This document shows, piece by piece, positions 3,384-19,216 of a stretch of DNA of 32,028 bases. The stretch lies in IMG/VR virus record IMGVR_UViG_2534681701_000015; one strand, written 5' to 3'. The first letter of the stretch is position 1. Each line of letters begins with the position of its first letter. The notes under the pieces were generated by a model, which made no database searches, had not been told where the DNA came from, and was given only the letters and a program-made list of their open reading frames with translations. Position numbers and translations under genes: made by a program. Source of the stretch: a virus. Taxonomy: Duplodnaviria; Heunggongvirae; Uroviricota; Caudoviricetes.

Positions 3384-4003
3384 TACTTCACCTCCTGCGG
3401 CGGCTCCGGTAGCGGCATCCAGTGGGTTACTTTCGATGCCGGTTCTTCCCCATTGTCAGTAACTGCCCACCATTTGTTTCTCGAACAATCGTAATACCCT
3501 TCGAAGGTATCGCACTCAGTCCAGCCGTAAGACTTACCCCAACACCAAACATACTGTTTATCGTTCGGCATTCGCTCACTACAGCTTATCCAACCATCCG
3601 GAGTTACCGGAGAGTTGCCCGACAGCTTGTTCAACTTATAAGTCTGGCTTACAGGTTTGGCACCATGAAGCATGGTGGCGCGGCAGGCGTTCCAGCCTTC
3701 ATCAAAACCGACTATGCCATTATTTAAAGACGGACGAGCATCTGGCACCACCAGTACTGGCTTGGCTATATATAGCGGCTGAACATACCAGCCCTTTGAT
3801 AACCAACTGTCAGCAATGTTTTTGCTCCTGGTTATTGCCGGAATACCTAAGCCATTGTCTGAATGCAGCCATGCCACCGGCTCCTCTTCCAGCGATGCCA
3901 GAGCAATTTCATAAGCACGGCGCTCAATATCGTCTCGAATCTCTAGGCTGCTGATTCGTTCTTTGATTTCTTTAATCAGTTCTTTATTGGTAAATGTGGT
4001 CAT
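3383..4003 (-). CDS. DUF551-family phage protein
   Basis: 206 aa; C-terminal THWMPLPEPP is characteristic of DUF551; translationally coupled to its neighbours. Confidence 0.65.
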   Translation of the reverse strand: MTTFTNKELIKEIKERISSLEIRDDIERRAYEIALASLEEEPVAWLHSDNGLGIPAITRSKNIADSWLSKGWYVQPLYIAKPVLVVPDARPSLNNGIVGFDEGWNACRATMLHGAKPVSQTYKLNKLSGNSPVTPDGWISCSERMPNDKQYVWCWGKSYGWTECDTFEGYYDCSRNKWWAVTDNGEEPASKVTHWMPLPEPPQEVK

Positions 4004-4968: not shown

Positions 4969-7414
<2,446 letters not shown>

Positions 7415-7471
7415 TCACTTAAATAAGTGATAGTCTTAATACTAGTTTTTAGACTAGTCATTGGAGAACAG

Positions 7472-7837
7472 ATGATTGATGTCTTAGGGCCGGAGAAACG
7501 CAGACGGCGTACCACACAGGAAAAGATCGCAATTGTTCAGCAGAGCTTTGAACCGGGGATGACGGTCTCCCTCGTTGCCCGGCAACATGGTGTAGCAGCC
7601 AGCCAGTTATTTCTCTGGCGTAAGCAATACCAGGAAGGAAGTCTTACTGCTGTCGCCGCCGGAGAACAGGTTGTTCCTGCCTCTGAACTTGCTGCCGCCA
7701 TGAAGCAGATTAAAGAACTCCAGCGCCTGCTCGGCAAGAAAACGATGGAAAATGAACTCCTCAAAGAAGCCGTTGAATATGGACGGGCAAAAAAGTGGAT
7801 AGCGCACGCGCCCTTATTGCCCGGGGATGGGGAGTAA
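7472..7837 (+). CDS. insC: IS2 OrfA (InsC), HTH protein
   Basis: [41 protein letters not shown]...; A6G slippery run at 7789-7795. Confidence 0.9.
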
Positions 7838-8700
7838 GCTTAGTCAGCCGTTGTCTCCGGGTGTCGCGTGCGCAGTTGCACGTCATTCTCAGACGAACCG
7901 ATGACTGGATGGATGGCCGCCGCAGTCGTCACACTGATGATACGGATGTGCTTCTCCGTATACACCATGTTATCGGAGAGCTGCCCACGTATGGTTATCG
8001 TCGGGTATGGGCGCTGCTTCGCAGACAGGCAGAACTTGATGGTATGCCTGCGATCAATGCCAAACGTGTTTACCGGATCATGCGCCAGAATGCGCTGTTG
8101 CTTGAGCGAAAACCTGCTGTACCGCCATCGAAACGGGCACATACAGGCAGAGTGGCCGTGAAAGAAAGCAATCAGCGATGGTGCTCTGACGGGTTCGAGT
8201 TCTGCTGTGATAACGGAGAGAGACTGCGTGTCACGTTCGCGCTGGACTGCTGTGATCGTGAGGCACTGCACTGGGCGGTCACTACCGGCGGCTTCAACAG
8301 TGAAACAGTACAGGACGTCATGCTGGGAGCGGTGGAACGCCGCTTCGGCAACGATCTTCCGTCGTCTCCAGTGGAGTGGCTGACGGATAATGGTTCATGC
8401 TACCGGGCTAATGAAACACGCCAGTTCGCCCGGATGTTGGGACTTGAACCGAAGAACACGGCGGTGCGGAGTCCGGAGAGTAACGGAATAGCAGAGAGCT
8501 TCGTGAAAACGATAAAGCGTGACTACATCAGTATCATGCCCAAACCAGACGGGTTAACGGCAGCAAAGAACCTTGCAGAGGCGTTCGAGCATTATAACGA
8601 ATGGCATCCGCATAGTGCGCTGGGTTATCGCTCGCCACGGGAATATCTGCGGCAGCGGGCTTGTAATGGGTTAAGTGATAACAGATGTCTGGAAATATAG
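7795..8700 (+). CDS. insD: IS2 OrfB (InsD), transposase catalytic domain, made as an OrfAB fusion by -1 frameshift
   Basis: 301-aa ORF with DDE integrase-like core, overlapping the end of insC in the -1 frame. Confidence 0.9.
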
Positions 8701-9202
8701 GGGCAAATCCACCAGTCTTCAATCCATTCTGCCAGTGACTTCTGGGAGTTACGCTCACCGTTAACAGACAACAGAGCAGAGAACGGTGCTGTCTTTTTCA
8801 GTTTGAGAGTGGCGGTGTTATCTGCGTGACCTGGTTCATCAATAGTACCCAGATTAAGCACACTGACGGCACGCATATTATCAGCATCGATAAAGCAGCG
8901 GGTGCCTTCATCTGCAAGATCTTTAGAATAACGGGTAAAGTCATCGATGCTGGCAGTGGAAAGCGCACCACGGAAACGTAAGCGATTTAAATTAAATTTT
9001 TCCAGATCATGAATGCGGAAATTCTCGGGCAATGCCACAGCATCGGCACCAATCTTACTGATAATTTCATTAACACCCTGAGCAGAAATAAGGGCATGGA
9101 TTTGATTAATTGCGGTTGCGTCTAAGTTCTGAGACATAATAAGTCCTCACTATATAAAGATATTCAGTGATGAGATAAATAATCAGTTAATTAAGAACGA
9201 TA

Positions 9203-9565
9203 TTAATGACCTGCTGCGCGGAGTTTTCCGTCAGGTTCACCGGCAAGAGTCAGTAATTGTCCCTGGTCTTCCTGCAGAATAGTCAGGCGACCACCGCGAT
9301 TGACATACATCGGCGTTTCGGTGGTGTCTTCTTCGGAAATTTTCCCGCGGTTAGTCGGGCGGACATATGAGAGTTTATGTTTGATTTTCACACGGCTCTC
9401 ATCAAACGGTTCGATTTCCAGGTTGAGTGAGACCTTACCTTTGGTTTTCGTGTTCATCACACCGGAAGCGACTTCACTGAGAACTGCGCCGATTTTGGTT
9501 TCAAATACGCCGCCGTCCAGCTCCCCGATAAATGCCTGTACATCAGTACTGCGTTCGCTAGCCAT
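9203..9565 (-). CDS. Hypothetical early-left phage protein (120 aa)
   Basis: ATG at 9565 preceded by AGGAG 7 nt upstream; the longer ORF called to 9751 lacks an SD and runs into the leader. Confidence 0.55.
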   Translation of the reverse strand: MASERSTDVQAFIGELDGGVFETKIGAVLSEVASGVMNTKTKGKVSLNLEIEPFDESRVKIKHKLSYVRPTNRGKISEEDTTETPMYVNRGGRLTILQEDQGQLLTLAGEPDGKLRAAGH

Positions 9566-9700
9566 TTTGCTGCTCCTCATCATATCGACCCTGCAAGGTC
9601 GGTTGGTTTCTCCACAAAACAGAGAAGAACACCTGCGGTGGCAGCCGCCCGGATGGATTGGGTTATGAGCCCGTCGTCCGGTGATGCTCTTCTCTGTTTT

Positions 9701-9748
9701 GTAAAAAGAGCGGTACCAGCCGGAAGCAAGTGTACAAACTGGTACCGC
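9701..9748 (-). terminator. Intrinsic terminator in the early-left leader
   Basis: Perfect 10-bp inverted repeat GCGGTACCAG (9710-9719) / CTGGTACCGC (9739-9748), 19-nt loop; on the minus strand it is followed by TCTTTTTAC. Confidence 0.45.
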
Positions 9749-10193
9749 CAAAGCAGTGGCTGTTGTGGTGACCGGTGCTGATCTCCGGCTTGCGGTTATT
9801 TCAGACTCTCACGGGCGTTTAATTGCCCCGCCGAACAGCTCTTTTCCGCAATAGCTGCAATGTCTTTCGCGCATCAGCCTGCGCATTCACCACAACGCTG
9901 AGAGCACTTAGCCAGTTACGGCACCACACTTTGTCGCGGTTCCATAAATGCCCTCATCGTTGCACCCTGGTCTCTTCCCAGGCGTCAAACCGAATCGCCA
10001 CGCTGGTTAGGCGTCTTATCAGCATCATCATTGACTTGCACATTCCGGCTACCTGGTTTGTTTGCTCGAGCAAGGAGTGGATTGTCCCCTTTAACGTCAC
10101 CAGACCGCTAACGACGCATGTGCCATACGCCGTATTACAACCAAATTTTGTTAGTACCTTGTTTGTTGGTCTGGAAAGAAAGATAAAATGAAG

Positions 10194-10231
10194 TTGCGCA
10201 TTATGCAAGTGTTTTATTGCGAGATGTGCAA
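10194..10231. promoter_or_regulatory. Putative OL operators / PL region
   Basis: Two 15-bp sites TTGC-N7-GCAA (10194-10208 TTGCGCATTATGCAA; 10217-10231 TTGCGAGATGTGCAA), same half-site pattern as the cI-cro intergenic region. Confidence 0.4.
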
Positions 10232-10240
10232 TTTTATGGG

Positions 10241-10266
10241 AAATGAAAAGCCACCTTTGGGTGGCT
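10241..10266 (-). terminator. Intrinsic terminator downstream of cI
   Basis: Hairpin GCCACC-TTTG-GGTGGC (10250-10265); on the minus strand it is followed by TTTCATTT; 20 nt after the cI stop. Confidence 0.5.
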
Positions 10267-10286
10267 AATTGATGAGGAGGTAAGGG

Positions 10287-10979
10287 TTAATTGTGTCGCT
10301 TAAGGGTTTGTGACTGGCTGATTAAGACCTTTCCAAAGACCATAAACCGGTGTTCATTTTCGCTGGTAATTCCCCATTCACGGTAAATCTGGTTATCAGA
10401 AATCACCAGTAGTTTGTCAGGTATCATTTGCAGTCGTTTGACATAAATTTTATCATCAAAACCAAATACATAGATACCATCTCCATCAAACTGATTGATA
10501 CTGACATCAACGAAGATGAGATCTCCTGGCTCAATGGTTGGACACATACTGTCCCCACGAACGTTGATAACTTTAATGTGATTGGCTGGTCGTCCGCCAA
10601 ACATCGATACAGCATTATCAGTTCTGTATTCAATGGCATGAATCACATCAATGACATCACCGCCCTGGATAAGGCCATTTCCCGCACTGGCACTGACATC
10701 CAGCATTTCAATACGGAATACATCCTTCACCTGCGCAACATCCTCACTAATACTGTTTTTACATACAGTATTACTTTTGAAGTCTGAGGTAAAGAGATCA
10801 GCAATATCAACACCTAAACTCCTGGCAATATTACTCAGGGCTTGTTCAGTGAATTGTTTCTGCTTACCTGTTTCCAGGCGCGAGATATTCGCCGCATCCA
10901 CTCCTATTGCTTCAGCGAGATCGGCGATTTTCATGTTCTTCGCCTGGCGAAGTTGTCTGACTCGATTTCCTATGTTCAT
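10287..10979 (-). CDS. cI: CI-type prophage repressor (XRE HTH + S24 LexA-like autopeptidase)
   Basis: 230 aa; N-terminal HTH (KIADLAEAIGVDAANISRLETGK), Ala-Gly cleavage site (SASAGNG), catalytic Ser in GDSM and Lys in VKRL. Confidence 0.9.
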   Translation of the reverse strand: MNIGNRVRQLRQAKNMKIADLAEAIGVDAANISRLETGKQKQFTEQALSNIARSLGVDIADLFTSDFKSNTVCKNSISEDVAQVKDVFRIEMLDVSASAGNGLIQGGDVIDVIHAIEYRTDNAVSMFGGRPANHIKVINVRGDSMCPTIEPGDLIFVDVSINQFDGDGIYVFGFDDKIYVKRLQMIPDKLLVISDNQIYREWGITSENEHRFMVFGKVLISQSQTLKRHN

Positions 10980-10999: not shown

Positions 11000-11066
11000 T
11001 TGCGCGTTAAGCAAATCAACTTGCGCAAAATATTTGCGTGAAATAACATGCTCATCACGCAATATG
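11000..11066. promoter_or_regulatory. OR operator / PR-PRM region between cI and cro
   Basis: TTGCGCGTTAAGCAA (11000-11014), near-palindrome GCAAAATATTTGC (11025-11037) and a further CGCAAT half-site at 11058-11063; cro SD GGAGG at 11068-11072. Confidence 0.5.
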
Positions 11067-11076
11067 TGGAGGTTAT

Positions 11077-11337
11077 ATGCAATCACCATTACGAAATGTG
11101 CGTAAGGCGCACGGGCTTACTTTGCAGCATGTTGCTGCGGGCGTTCAGGTTAATCCAGCAACGCTGAGTCGTATTGAGAGACTGGAACAAATTCCATCTA
11201 TCGATCTTGCAGAGCGTCTGGCCAATTTTTTTAAGGGAGAAATCAGCGAAATGCAGATTCTCTATCCTGCACGCTTTCAATCTAGTCAAAACCGGAATGA
11301 GTTAAAACCACAGGAACAGGAGGTAAGCCGTGGGTAA
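11077..11337 (+). CDS. cro: Cro-like XRE-family HTH regulator
   Basis: 86 aa, divergent from cI; HTH GLTLQHVAAGVQVNPATLSRIER. Confidence 0.75.
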   Translation: MQSPLRNVRKAHGLTLQHVAAGVQVNPATLSRIERLEQIPSIDLAERLANFFKGEISEMQILYPARFQSSQNRNELKPQEQEVSRG

Positions 11338-11874
11338 GCATCACTGGAAAGTGGAAAAACAACCTGAGTGGTACGTGAAAGCTATCAGAAAAACTATCGC
11401 GGCATTGCCAGGTGGTTACGCTGAAGCTGCTGACTGGCTGGATGTAACAGAGAACGCATTATTTAACCGGCCGATGGCGATCAGTTTTTTCCGTTGGGAT
11501 GGGCAATGGTTTTACAGCGTGCGGCTGGTACTCACCACATTGCGGATGCTGTCGCACAGTCTGCTGGTGGGGTGTTTGTATCACTTCCTGAAATTGAGGA
11601 AGTAGAGAACGCCGATATAAACCAGCGCCTGCTGGAAGTCATCGAACAGATCGGGAGTTACTCAAAGCAGATTCGTTCGGCAATCGAAGACGGGGTAGTG
11701 GAGCCACATGAGCAGACAGCAATTAATGATGAGTTGTATCTGTCGATTTCGAAGCTCCAGGAACATGCGGCACTGGTCTACAAAATTTTCTGCGTTCCAG
11801 AAAAGAGTGACGCCCGCGAGTGTGCAGCTCCGGGCGTCGTGGCGTTTTGTGTCTGTGGAGAAACTAACGCATGA
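11330..11874 (+). CDS. CII-like early regulator (CP76/YdaT-type position), with an apparent -1 frame break at a T6 run
   Basis: GTG 11330 preceded by GGAGG; the frame is coherent to the T run 11485-11490 then continues in the -1 frame to TGA 11872-11874; the C-terminus of the first ORF (FYSVRLVLTTLRMLSHSLLVGC...) looks non-coding. Confidence 0.45.
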
Positions 11875-12199
11875 ACAGTTTAACGGCAAATAACCGTTGG
11901 TCGCAACAGCTGGTGGTCCGCGTGGCTGAACACCTGTTGTTACGGCATGAATGCAGATTACCAAATCACCTGGCTGTAAGTAACCACAGAGAACTTTACC
12001 TGACTGTGGGGGGCGAGTTGTGCAGGAACTTAACCGCTGGTTTCGTGACGGAAGAGGACTTTATGTTCATGTTATTCGTTGGGAGCCAGAAACACAGCGC
12101 GTTATCTATCTTCGCAAAGACTACCCGCATGAGTGCTTTAGTCCTTTGTGGAAATTCAGGCGTGATTTTGTTGAGTGTGAAGGACCACCAGCACATTGA
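11871..12199 (+). CDS. Hypothetical small early protein, apparent -1 frame break at a G6 run (about 108 aa if joined)
   Basis: ATG 11871 overlaps the upstream stop (ATGA); frame breaks at G run 12008-12013; the -1 frame continues to TGA 12197-12199 (..VQELNRWFRDGRGLYVHVIRWEPETQRVIYLRKDYPHECFSPLWKFRRDFVECEGPPAH). Confidence 0.35.
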
Positions 12200-12284
12200 T
12201 TCTGCCATTCCGGGACGTTACACTGTTCAGGCACCTTATAAAGCGGGTGCCGGGCGTGGAAACCCGGAATTCACCAAAGCGCAC

Positions 12285-12308
12285 AACCGCGCTCTTGCGG
12301 TTTTTTTG
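12285..12308 (+). terminator. Intrinsic terminator inside the early-right operon
   Basis: AACCGC-GCTCTT-GCGGTT hairpin followed by T7 (12301-12307). Confidence 0.5.
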
Positions 12309-12476
12309 TGTCATGAGCAGCATTACGCCCAAATTATGGTGGGGCGTGCAGGGCCAACTTCGGTTGGGCCGGGTTCTTTGGTGACCGGTATTTCCACCCC
12401 TGTACGTCTCACCACCAATAAGGTCGTGGAAAGCCTTGGTGGTGAGTTATTTAAAATCACCAAAGAGGCTGCCATC

Positions 12477-13022
12477 ATGGCTACGATCCCAACCCTCACT
12501 CAACCTGAAATTGCCATCGTTGATGGTCAGGCTGTTACTTCATCCCTGGCTGTTGCCAACTTCTTCTCCAAACGTCATGACGATGTACTGAAAAAGATCC
12601 GCACGCTTGAATGCTCCGCATCATTCACTGCCCGCAATTTTTCGGTGAGTGATTACACCGATTGCACAGGCCGCAAACTACCTTGCTATCAAATAACCCG
12701 CGACGGCTTTGCGTTTCTTGCTATGGGTTTCACGGGTAAACGTGCTGCCCAGTTCAAAGAGGCATACATCAATGCCTTTAACCAGATGGAGAAACAGCTT
12801 TCAAGGCCCGCTGTACCGAGCGACGTTGCACATAACGCCAGCGTTCTCTGTTCCTACATTTCATCAATTCATCAGGTCTGGCTGCAGCAGCTTTATCCTA
12901 TGTTGGCAAAAGCCGAATCTCCGCTGGCTGTTAGCTTATATGACTATATTAATGATGCTTCGGCGCTGGCCTGCCTCATAAATTTGTCGCTGAACCCTTC
13001 AGAGGTAAGGGGGCGCAAATGA
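12477..13022 (+). CDS. rha: Rha-family phage regulatory protein
   Basis: ATG 12477 with SD AGAGG 8 nt upstream; N-terminus PTLTQPEIAIVDGQAVTSSLAVANFFSKRHDDVLKKIRTL...YQITRDGFAFLAMGFTGKRAAQFKEAYINAF fits the Rha family; the 383-aa ORF called from 11871 is read-through. Confidence 0.8.
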   Translation: MATIPTLTQPEIAIVDGQAVTSSLAVANFFSKRHDDVLKKIRTLECSASFTARNFSVSDYTDCTGRKLPCYQITRDGFAFLAMGFTGKRAAQFKEAYINAFNQMEKQLSRPAVPSDVAHNASVLCSYISSIHQVWLQQLYPMLAKAESPLAVSLYDYINDASALACLINLSLNPSEVRGRK

Positions 13023-17725: not shown

Positions 17726-17742
17726 TTTTGTGGAGAAAGTTG

Positions 17743-18108
17743 ATGCGTGATATTCAAATGGTTCTTGAACGTTGGGGGGCATGGGTGGCAAATAATCACG
17801 AGGATGTCACCTGGTCGTCTATTGCTGCAGGATTTAAAGGACTAATCCCTTCAAAAGTAAAATCCCGCCCGCAATGTTGTGACGATGACGCGATGATCAT
17901 TTGTGGGTGCATGGCTCGCCTGAAAAAGAACAACAGCGATTTGCACGATTTATTAGTGGATTATTATGTAGGTGGTATGACGTTTATGGCGCTTGCCCGT
18001 AAACATGGGCGTTCTGATTGCTGGGTTGGGCGTTTATTGCAAAAGGCTGAAGGTGTAGTTGATGGCATGTTAATGATGTTAGAAATTGAGCTAGAGATGG
18101 ATCGTTAG
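17743..18108 (+). CDS. Q: Late-gene antiterminator Q
   Basis: ATG 17743 with SD GGAGA; [25 protein letters not shown]... with a Cys cluster; last gene before the lysis region. Confidence 0.8.
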
Positions 18109-18191: not shown

Positions 18192-18638
18192 TTAAGGTTT
18201 TAATTCATCAAGACGTTGTTGGATAGTGTTTTTGCTTGCGTTGTCTGTTATAGCCATTTGTTGTACTTGCCCCATTGCCATTTGAGTTTCCATCCACATA
18301 TCGGCCCACACTTTTGTATCGTTATTAACTTGAGCGATAGTAAATCTGACTTTTGATACCGGGGTTGTTGAATAGGCATTTCCGATTAACATTTGTCCAA
18401 AAACAGCAGAGCCGCCTTCCAGTTCTTTACCACATATAACACTGCTGTTATCCGCGTTGTAAATTATCAACCCTCTACTATTGCAGTAATTCACAAGGGC
18501 ATCTTTGACTTTATCTTTTGTCGTATTTTGATAAACCCCCTCAGGTTTTCCTGATTGAGTTTTCTTTATCAATGGTACGGAAGAAGTACAACCTGAAATG
18601 ATAGTTGCGCTAAGTAATAGTACAGTCATTTTATTCAT
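18192..18638 (-). CDS. Lipoprotein moron (148 aa) encoded antisense between Q and the tRNA cluster
   Basis: Signal peptide plus lipobox MNKMTVLLLSATIISGC; visibly AT-rich; hairpin GGGGAG..CTCCCC at 18151-18172 just beyond its stop. Confidence 0.7.
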   Translation of the reverse strand: MNKMTVLLLSATIISGCTSSVPLIKKTQSGKPEGVYQNTTKDKVKDALVNYCNSRGLIIYNADNSSVICGKELEGGSAVFGQMLIGNAYSTTPVSKVRFTIAQVNNDTKVWADMWMETQMAMGQVQQMAITDNASKNTIQQRLDELKP

Positions 18639-18906: not shown

Positions 18907-18982
18907 GGCCCTTTAGCTCAGTGGTGAGAGCGAGCGACTCATAATCGCCAGGTCGCTGGTTCAAATCCAGCAAGGGCCACCA
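18907..18982 (+). tRNA. tRNA with CAU anticodon (ileX/ileZ-like tRNA-Ile2 or Met)
   Basis: Cloverleaf folded by hand: acceptor GGCCCTT/AAGGGCC, D-arm GCTCAGTGGTGAGAGC, anticodon loop CTCATAA, T-loop TTCAAAT, 3' ACCA. Confidence 0.8.
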
Positions 18983-18983
18983 A

Positions 18984-19060
18984 CTGCCACTAGCTCATCA
19001 GGAAAGAGCGTCAACCCTTTAAGTTGAGAGTGCGAGGTTCGAGTCCCCGGTGGCGGTCCA
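18984..19060 (+). tRNA. tRNA-like gene, identity uncertain (anticodon loop CCTTTAA; UUU/Lys if canonical, but C at position 33)
   Basis: Acceptor CTGCCAC/GTGGCGG (one G-U), D-arm GCTC..GAGC, anticodon stem TCAAC/GTTGA, T-arm CGAGG-TTCGAGT-CCCCG (one mismatch), 3' TCCA. Confidence 0.5.
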
Positions 19061-19062
19061 GT

Positions 19063-19138
<76 letters not shown>

Positions 19139-19141
19139 TGT

Positions 19142-19216
<75 letters not shown>

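Follow-up and report, generated by a model that had tools for sequence, protein, structure and literature searches.

We describe a conserved, covarying structured RNA, here called module A, in the leader of the early-left operon of a lambdoid prophage. The window, that is, the whole 32,028-nt stretch of DNA analysed (IMG/VR record IMGVR_UViG_2534681701_000015, Caudoviricetes), holds a prophage of the SfV / mEp460 / CPS-53 type from Escherichia coli or Shigella. Module A belongs to the strand transcribed from the leftward early promoter, PL, and stands where the antiterminator RNA putL is found in phage HK022, although it is not itself a put RNA. A terminator-like hairpin lies close to PL and no N gene was found, so something must allow transcription to read through into the operon. 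Given this need, the presence of a conserved RNA within 9750-10190, in the slot of putL, makes an RNA-based mechanism a live and specific hypothesis. We tentatively favour the reading, which we place somewhat below an even chance, that module A is an antiterminator RNA analogous to put and not homologous to it, which would allow read-through of the leader terminator.

Structure and conservation of module A

An exact scan of IMG/VR with the 19-mer GGTAGCCGGAATGTGCAAG found at least 120 contigs, which yielded 109 distinct copies of the element in 44 clusters at 92% identity. Thirty-nine diverse copies were aligned and their base pairs counted for a four-helix model (helices and positions are given in Table 1). 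Pairing is seen in 94.9% of the cells, compared with 88.3 +/- 0.4% in column shuffles and 25.6-41.9% when the partners are slid. Double changes occur at ten pairs and none of 500 shuffles attains the observed covariation score. The clearest covariation is at the closing pair of helix P1, which is A-U in 21 sequences and G-C in 18. G-U pairs, which would be C-A mismatches on the other strand, are frequent, and the fold therefore belongs to the PL-sense strand. The stretch that the first-pass annotation had put forward for RNA structure prediction, 9750-10190, does hold a structured RNA.

The single-stranded stretches that are invariant across copies are the 19-mer, GGCGAUnnGGUGUGAC and the loops UAUGGCACAUG, UUCACCA and GAAGAGA. 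As the homologues were fished mainly with the 19-mer, the conservation of the 19-mer itself is partly circular; eight independently found copies keep it, save for two single changes. The element is closed by a long hairpin, P5: a helix of 12 bp or more begins at most 12 nt after P4 in 69 of 100 elements. P5 has several arm types with compensated changes, for example GAUGAGAGC/GCUCUCAGC, GGUAAGAGC/GCUCUUUCC and GAGCGCAC/GUGCGCUC. P4 is not universal: loci L016, L017, L040 and L041 carry unrelated sequence in place of P4 and of the stretch after GGCGAUCAGGUG, about 90 nt past the 19-mer, and this subgroup includes the copy behind an HK022-type PL. A pseudoknot between GCACAU in the P1 loop and the invariant AUGUGC, which is preferred by RNAalifold, is not claimed, as these positions could not covary in a set fished with the 19-mer and AUGUGC is changed to AUAUGC and AUUUGC, uncompensated, in two of the eight independent genomes.

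Module A appears to be undescribed, being absent from Rfam, from the matched phage and RefSeq records listed and from the literature searched, which included searches with the literal sequence. Rfam 15 gave nothing at the gathering threshold on 9566-10286, where the best match in E-value mode (E = 1.8) was well below the gathering score, and none of its ribozymes or riboswitches, nor EAR, matched in the leader. No RNA is annotated on module A among the phage and RefSeq matches listed.

Relation to put

The put RNAs act in cis without any phage protein. They bind the zinc-binding domain of the RNA polymerase beta' subunit and overcome intrinsic as well as Rho-dependent terminators, and they are blocked by mutations in the zinc-binding domain encoded by rpoC. 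HK022 has put sites in both its PL and its PR operon. Our put covariance model, R2, comprises 17 sequences (HK022 putL and putR, HK639 putL and 14 further ones) and scores HK022 putL at 94.6 bits, HK639 putL at 85.1 and HK022 putR at 51.9. It gave no match at E <= 10 in the window or in ten element loci, including those of P1, phiV10, Tyrion, SPN1S, mEp390, L018, L041 and L079. With the filters off, its best match in 9500-10300 was the hairpin of helix P1, at 3.5 bits and E = 0.5, covariance-model E-values being rough. In the reverse direction, the module A model, R1, found no put site. The two elements are mutually exclusive, with no put match in 100 element loci (958 kb) and no element match in 100 put loci (1.03 Mb). 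Membership of the put family was accordingly rejected, there being no significant covariance match either way. The first-pass annotation had suggested an HK022 put-like mechanism within this leader and a search of it against put models. The put RNA did not materialise, and what stands of the suggestion is that a conserved, covarying RNA does lie in 9750-10190 at the putL slot, so an RNA-based mechanism would have to operate there other than by put homology.

In position module A resembles put. Like putL in HK022 and HK639, it is a structured RNA which the PL transcript of N-less lambdoid phages carries close to the promoter, with terminators after it; in the window it lies just past the early promoter, on the PL side only. 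In L041 the OL/PL region is about 80% identical to that of HK022 up to the transcript start, beyond which HK022 has putL and L041 has module A, beginning where putL begins, and the two never co-occur. In build they differ. put is about 70 nt long with two stems, whereas the core of module A measures about 170 nt, or about 245 nt when P5 is counted, and the element has five helices. Module A is also found outside the lambdoid phages, in P1 and epsilon15-like phages, and has no copy after PR. Stem I of put pairs CGGCG with CGUCG and has a pseudoknot strand on its 5' side and a CAUG bulge, its stem II has the internal loop GGCGG/GGCAAU, and residues U28, G45 and A64, which lie within the motifs compared, matter for activity (PMC9378689). 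Module A contains ACGGCG...CAUGCGUCG, followed by GCGG and then CCGGAAU, which recall these motifs, a likeness that has no statistical support. The resemblance of its P1 hairpin (CGGCG-...CAUG-CGUCG) to the lower stem I and CAUG bulge of put may be taken as a lead only. The HK639 record annotates an ordinary put-type putL, which is recognised by R2 and not by R1; in the same record (L133, 37910-37969) an 'M3-like RNA' is annotated between cII and the next gene of the PR operon.

Genomic context and distribution

Module A is placed in a consistent way with respect to repressor genes. An S24 (CI/LexA-type) repressor gene is detectable near the element in 62 of the 120 IMG/VR loci. All 62 of these genes are upstream and share the strand of the element, and 53 of them end no more than 600 nt away. 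These repressors are from 33% to 100% identical to three reference repressors, which indicates that many immunity types are represented, and in L044, L058, L099 and L079 a shorter helix-turn-helix repressor is arranged in the same way. The first genes past the element vary with the context (yfdP; a phrog_14171 protein and ParB; a large exonuclease; ban; an Sf6 gp66-like gene). Counted from the 19-mer, it is about 530-1000 nt to the first likely genes, as judged by a PHROG match, in the lambdoid loci sampled, so that long untranslated leaders are common there. Such leaders are natural targets of Rho.

Terminator-like hairpins follow the element more often than they occur on the other strand or upstream. 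By a strict criterion, a hairpin of -14 kcal/mol or lower beside a T tract, 82 distinct loci were scored: 60 have such a strong hairpin on the sense strand between 90 and 900 nt past the element, 18 have one on the antisense strand of this DNA and 14 in a matching stretch upstream. Many of these hairpins form one recognisable family, which consists of GGCGGU, a few covarying pairs, a pyrimidine-rich loop of 15-20 nt, ACCGCC and then CUUUUUAC and which the window shares with the epsilon15-like phages. The order in phiV10 is a near-consensus promoter, an 85-nt spacer, module A, P5, tRNA-Arg(UCU), the GGCGGU...ACCGCC hairpin, a second, canonical terminator and a protein gene. In the epsilon15-like phages the last bases of the P5 3' arm mark the start of the tRNA-Arg gene. 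Of 38 representative loci, tRNA-Arg(UCU) closely follows the element in five, and in one, a P1-like locus, a tRNA closely precedes it; phiV10, TL-2011b, SPN1S and P1 itself show these arrangements too. With a tRNA adjoining the element in only six of the 38, tRNA linkage as a general rule was rejected. A tRNA-like sequence, in which ARAGORN calls no tRNA, lies inside the P5 loop of L106 (about 3690-3790), the sequence after P5 in L079 (about 5330-5400) resembles the 3' half of a tRNA, and in the epsilon15-like L008 a full tRNA-Arg(UCU) (2243-2319) abuts P5. To judge from its sequence, P5 tolerates cargo.

The element is very common. By megablast it is present in 1561 of 5426 complete E. coli genomes (about 29%), at 1391 chromosomal places and 549 places on P1-like plasmids, and it occurs in P1, in epsilon15-like phages and in many lambdoid phages. 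A scan of species-representative genomes with a degenerate pattern, in which R1 confirmed 8 of the first 100 loci checked, extends its range to Citrobacter, Kosakonia, Kluyvera, Phytobacter and Escherichia whittamii. A 32-nt CRISPR spacer of E. coli 2012C-4502 (L375, 401-432) is 100% identical to 10086-10117, from P1 to the start of P2; this identity indicates that a host has acquired what would be immunity against a conserved non-coding stretch of module A.

The leader terminator and the search for N

The 10-bp perfect stem with a U tract reported by the first-pass annotation is present on the minus strand at 9702-9749 (terminator T). Its arms (9710-9719 and 9739-9748, 10 nt each) are 100% complementary, the stem of 10-11 bp has a folding energy of -15.7 kcal/mol and the minus-strand sequence after the hairpin is TCTTTTTA. 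By our estimate, a 10-bp perfect inverted repeat beside a T tract is expected by chance about 0.04 times per 32 kb. The stem stands directly before the U tract and has been kept in evolution: in L094 GGTACC/GGTACC has become GGTGCC/GGCACC, a compensatory change, and in L062 the stem is kept by a G-U pair, while the loop is free to vary. Terminators were predicted with a simple folding scan of our own and a consensus scanner. In the folding scan T is the only terminator-like site on the minus strand of 7000-10300 besides that of the cI-like gene (10249-10266); the consensus scanner, which allows loops of 3-8 nt, did not detect it. T has the G+C-rich stem and U tract of an intrinsic terminator, and its 19-nt loop is atypically long, textbook intrinsic terminators having much shorter ones, so that its strength is a prediction.

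The leader was described as about 620 nt long with no N-like gene, and both points hold. From the positions of the -35 and -10 hexamers the PL transcript is predicted to start near 10173, which gives about 608 nt to the ATG of the yfdP-like gene. The assignment of PL is supported by the recurring operator palindromes TTGCG-N5-NGCAA, of which the 32-kb window has only six. No PHROG family is matched by the three longest open reading frames (ORFs) of the leader, of which two are on the minus strand (84 and 36 amino acids) and one is on the plus strand (122 amino acids). In lambda-type phages the first gene of the PL operon encodes the Arg-rich N; here it is yfdP-like. Comparison with PHROGs found nothing N-like among the early-left ORFs submitted, which were all except 5161-5943, 5940-6962, 1396-2301 and the split yfdQ fragments, and the sole antiterminator among the selected rightward ORFs scanned is the Q-like gene. 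The search for N homologues elsewhere in the prophage, another of the proposed checks, has therefore produced none among the ORFs scanned, nor any unrecognised protein antiterminator. In the complete genome of mEp460 Q is annotated and N is not, and none of the first downstream genes sampled at eight other element-bearing loci is N-like.

A mosaic leader

The region around the leader is 97.6-98.5% identical to phages PhiR63_1 and mEp460 (97.6% for mEp460). In a sensitive comparison of the 721-nt leader region with 50,697 phage records, different stretches match different sets of phages, so that the leader is a mosaic of at least four separately conserved modules. Positions 10146-9890 match P1 (between trnI and ban, where the sequence is unannotated), the epsilon15-like phiV10, TL-2011b, SPN1S and Tyrion, and mEp390. 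About 42 nt at 9908-9867, comprising the P5 3' arm and the start of the next module, recur at about 92% identity in many unrelated virulent phages, whose hosts are Klebsiella, Salmonella, Erwinia, Edwardsiella and Cronobacter; Klebsiella phage 6991 (L007, 905-1125) has a P5-like hairpin and module B without the module A core. These matches point to 9867-9908 as a small RNA module that moves independently. Module B is bounded by a long-range helix and may be a tRNA-like relic. It occupies the slot of a real tRNA in the sister phages, and in it we can read an acceptor-like 10-bp helix and a D-arm-like hairpin only. As a tRNA it was rejected, ARAGORN and Rfam calling none there and its fold being no better than that of shuffled sequences (z = -0.36). 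The whole leader, on the other hand, folds far better than its shuffled versions (z = -5.2).

Module C consists of the terminator and a hairpin of 20-25 bp, and 9750-9566 matches SfII, SfIV and ST64B. The 5' arm of the long hairpin starts inside the U tract of terminator T. The hairpin forms part of the minimum-free-energy fold, L094 and L128 preserve it through compensatory changes, and it is possibly an RNase III or other processing site. The N leader of lambda has an RNase III site, and here the long hairpin likewise lies just before the ribosome-binding site of the first gene. After it come a small hairpin (9584-9603, minus strand), the Shine-Dalgarno sequence GAGGAG and the yfdP-like ATG, all within 9563-9603. 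SfII (L005, 1650-2450) has the cI terminator, OL/PL and module C in common with the window, with a different leader of about 800 nt between them in which the models matched neither module A nor put; it may hold yet another leader element.

Possible function of module A

Under the reading that we tentatively favour, module A and P5 would act in cis on the RNA polymerase that has just made them, as HK022 put does. The modified polymerase would resist Rho along the untranslated leader of about 600 nt and read through the hairpin at 9702-9749 into yfdP and the rest of the early-left operon, while polymerases that have not transcribed module A would stop at that hairpin. By analogy with put we infer the binding to polymerase, the antitermination and any requirement for module A. 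Several points speak for this reading: module A keeps strictly close to PL and to the same strand whatever the immunity type, it takes the place of putL at a homologous promoter in L041, it and put exclude each other, no N was found, the long untranslated leaders are natural Rho targets, and terminators are in excess downstream. If it is right, module A could found a second class of polymerase-modifying antiterminator RNAs, larger than put, spread through lambdoid, P1-like and epsilon15-like phages of Enterobacteriaceae and paired with the long-loop terminator family GGCGGU...ACCGCC-CUUUUUAC, which we likewise advance as a tentative proposal, nearer to doubtful than to probable.

Several observations weigh against an antiterminator. 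The element has one copy only, on the PL side, with none after PR, and no statistical homology to put. No strong terminator is predicted within 900 nt in 22 of the 82 loci, and with a looser threshold the strand difference disappears (199 sense, 253 antisense). The P1 copy lies about 1 kb into its operon, between trnI and ban, and no terminator stands before ban. Module C is also present in SfII, where the leader has no module A. The order of element, tRNA or tRNA-like module and terminator resembles a self-contained RNA gene, and a tRNA that abuts P5 suggests release by RNase P. The prophage itself is decayed, with IS2 in yfdQ and a frameshifted cII-like gene, and module A may be idle here.

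Some of these points also fit a different explanation, namely that PL yields a stable non-coding RNA early on, made up of module A, P5 and perhaps module B, whose target in trans would be some conserved host component; it might serve there as a decoy, an inhibitor or an anti-defence RNA. Its release would come about through termination at 9702-9749 or through processing, with RNase P cutting at the tRNA or tRNA-like junction and RNase III at the long hairpin, and the early-left genes would be expressed because the long-loop terminator leaks. The cassette of element, P5, tRNA or module B, and GGCGGU...ACCGCC hairpin with U tract recurs, in epsilon15-like phages after a consensus promoter of its own and in lambdoid ones after PL. 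The tRNA-Arg starts exactly where the P5 3' arm ends, and L106 has tRNA-like sequence in its P5 loop. Moreover, the junctions do not vary among P1, epsilon15-like and lambdoid phages, whose hosts belong to several genera, and this suggests a conserved host partner; a 19-nt loop should weaken the terminator, the 20-25-bp hairpin right behind it resembles RNase III sites, and SfII has the terminator module without module A. An RNA acting in trans would, however, not require strict same-strand placement after PL across immunity types, nor the replacement of putL, and the leaders of P1 and of mEp390-like phages have no dedicated terminator to release it. This explanation and that of a put analogue fit the observations almost equally well, and we consider action in trans possible, though on the unlikely side. 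A passive leader is less likely still. It would be a mosaic of housekeeping modules, namely a stabiliser at its 5' end, sites of processing, a decayed tRNA and a terminator that attenuates, none of which alters polymerase, and module A would serve to shield or order the transcript or would work as a ribozyme or sensor. Stretches of the leader do match different phage groups, module B and the P5 3' arm do travel alone in unrelated virulent phages, and a structure that folds as well as this leader would itself hinder Rho. On the other side, a stabiliser would not need a core as large as about 170 nt, with junctions that are invariant and five helices that covary, the lack of Rfam ribozyme or riboswitch matches tells against a ribozyme or sensor, and the distance from element to terminator, which varies from about 100 to 650 nt with tRNAs between, fits a classical riboswitch or attenuator badly.

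The two remaining explanations involve proteins. An unrecognised N-like or other antiterminator encoded elsewhere might use a site in the leader, with P4 as the analogue of boxB and CGCUCUUUUUACAA at 9713-9700 as a boxA-like string. The 7-nt loop of P4, GAAGAGA, does contain GAAGA as does lambda boxB(L), the terminator tail resembles boxA (CGCUCUUA / UGCUCUUUAACAA), and YfdP and several other early proteins have no known function. Yet as read from the sequence there is no boxA immediately upstream of P4, the boxA-like string being about 250 nt away and merely the descending stem and U tract of the terminator. No PHROG N family is represented among the scanned ORFs of the window or the first genes of the eight sampled loci, mEp460 has no annotated N, and the downstream genes differ among contexts, so that no protein partner travels with the element. 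We regard this explanation as improbable. Least probable of all, to a degree that makes it hardly credible, is that the conserved leader is coding, for instance for the 122-amino-acid plus-strand ORF (gp37 in mEp460) or the 84-amino-acid minus-strand ORF (annotated in phiSTEC1575-Stx2k). Both are annotated as hypothetical proteins in some records. Against them, the start codons are TTG and lie inside the promoter region, no PHROG family is matched, and the copies in P1, phiV10, SPN1S, Tyrion and mEp390 have indels that are not multiples of three together with compensatory pair changes. The ORFs are not kept where the DNA is conserved, and they were rejected as genes.

Other systems offer partial parallels. 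Like nutL of lambda, module A is the first thing transcribed from PL, before the first terminator, but here no N gene was found, the conserved RNA is far larger than a nut site, and the sequence shows no evident counterpart of the nut order of boxA, short spacer and boxB hairpin with a GNRA-like pentaloop. EAR of the Bacillus eps operons and boxA of the rrn operons are RNA signals found close to the beginning of transcription units that are long or untranslated, and they render polymerase processive; module A, too, stands at the head of long untranslated leaders and of units that contain tRNAs. They are unrelated to it in sequence and host range, and rrn antitermination needs Nus factors and a short boxA. 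The lambda 6S or PR' transcript and StxS are promoter-proximal transcripts which are terminated unless antiterminated; they come from PR' and are Q-dependent. Here too a conserved terminator would end the leader RNA, and by analogy the short product could itself be functional, although module A comes from PL and has a much larger conserved fold.

To our knowledge, RNA-only processive antitermination is known essentially from one phage RNA family, put, and from EAR. Genome papers on lambdoid phages without N have stated that they 'may have a put-like mechanism' and have named no element (PMC12315714). Module A provides a defined, alignable and very common RNA for that slot, described by a covariance model and by exact helix positions. 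Should it prove to be an antiterminator, RNAs that tame polymerase would have arisen more than once, and early expression would be accounted for in many E. coli, Shigella and Salmonella prophages, including Stx2c- and Stx2a-converting phages, as well as in the ban operon of P1. As a stable early RNA it would instead be an abundant non-coding RNA of phages that has escaped annotation, presumably with a host target. In either case the approximately 1,900 unannotated copies in complete E. coli genomes merit annotation.

Features of the window and the prophage

Table 1. Positions of the elements, signals and genes discussed in the text, numbered from the first letter of the window
Feature	Position	Strand	Remarks
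Module A with P5	10135-9889	minus	about 245 nt; starts about 40 nt after the predicted PL start
Module A core	9964-10135	minus	about 170 nt; model R1, 139.9 bits, E = 2.5e-46 (rough); only copy in the window
Helix P1	10128-10132 with 10112-10116	minus	loop UAUGGCACAUG
Helix P2	10100-10108 with 10048-10056	minus	tip variable
Invariant 19-mer	10035-10053	minus	GGUAGCCGGAAUGUGCAAG
Helix P3	10011-10014 with 10000-10003	minus	loop CUAACCA
Junction	9984-9999	minus	GGCGAUUCGGUUUGAC
Helix P4	9978-9982 with 9966-9970	minus	loop GAAGAGA
Hairpin P5, closing module A	9891-9963	minus	5' arm 9945-9963, 3' arm 9891-9910; tip variable
Module B	9762-9896	minus	bounded by 10-bp long-range helix GUUGUGGUGA/UCACCACAAC, 9762-9771 with 9887-9896, 100%
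Leader terminator T (predicted)	9702-9749	minus	arms GGCGGUACCAG / CUGGUACCGC, 19-nt loop, tail UCUUUUUA
Long hairpin, about 20-25 bp	9614-9702	minus	arms 9614-9638 and 9678-9702, 25 nt, 84% complementary
OL/PL region	10180-10231	minus	
PL promoter (predicted)	-35 TTGCAT 10208-10203; -10 TATCTT 10185-10180	minus	hexamers read from the sequence
OL operators	10194-10208 and 10217-10231		TTGCG-N5-NGCAA palindromes
OR-side operator	11000-11014		TTGCG-N5-NGCAA palindrome on the far side of cI
Intrinsic terminator of the cI-like gene (predicted)	10249-10266	minus	consensus scan: 7-bp stem, 4-nt loop, tail TTTTCATT; folding scan: -9.7 kcal/mol
yfdP-like gene, first of the early-left operon	9203-9565	minus	ATG at 9565; phrog_204, function unknown, E = 4e-49
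CI-like S24 repressor gene	10287-10979	minus	
Cro-like gene	11077-11337	rightward	CII-like gene also rightward
Q-like antiterminator gene	17728-18108	rightward	PHROG match

Beyond the yfdP-like gene the early-left operon continues with a yfdQ-like gene, a 5'-nucleotidase gene and xis. The yfdQ/DUF2303-like gene, second in the operon, is split by IS2 (7427-8700; insC/insD, plus strand) into the fragments 6989-7408 and 8625-9137, and given this insertion the prophage is probably defective. On the rightward side the CII/YmfL-like gene (11330-11874) consists of two overlapping ORFs in different frames (11330-11605 and 11494-11874), while its counterpart in mEp460 is one intact gene of 552 bp; a frameshift is the likely cause. 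Rfam also recognises isrK (12231-12307, plus strand, 67 bits) and a C4 antisense RNA (12332-12419, plus strand, 83.6 bits), both within an ORF of 383 amino acids (11871-13022) that is annotated in relatives as antirepressor, regulator or 'peptidase'. The region resembles a c4/ant module of the P1 immI kind in which the ORF start is over-called. The only tRNAs that ARAGORN and Rfam find in the window are four genes on the plus strand at 18907-19216 (Met-CAU, Lys-UUU, Thr-UGU and Gly-UCC), about 0.8 kb past the Q-like gene, from which they are separated by a minus-strand ORF (18192-18638).

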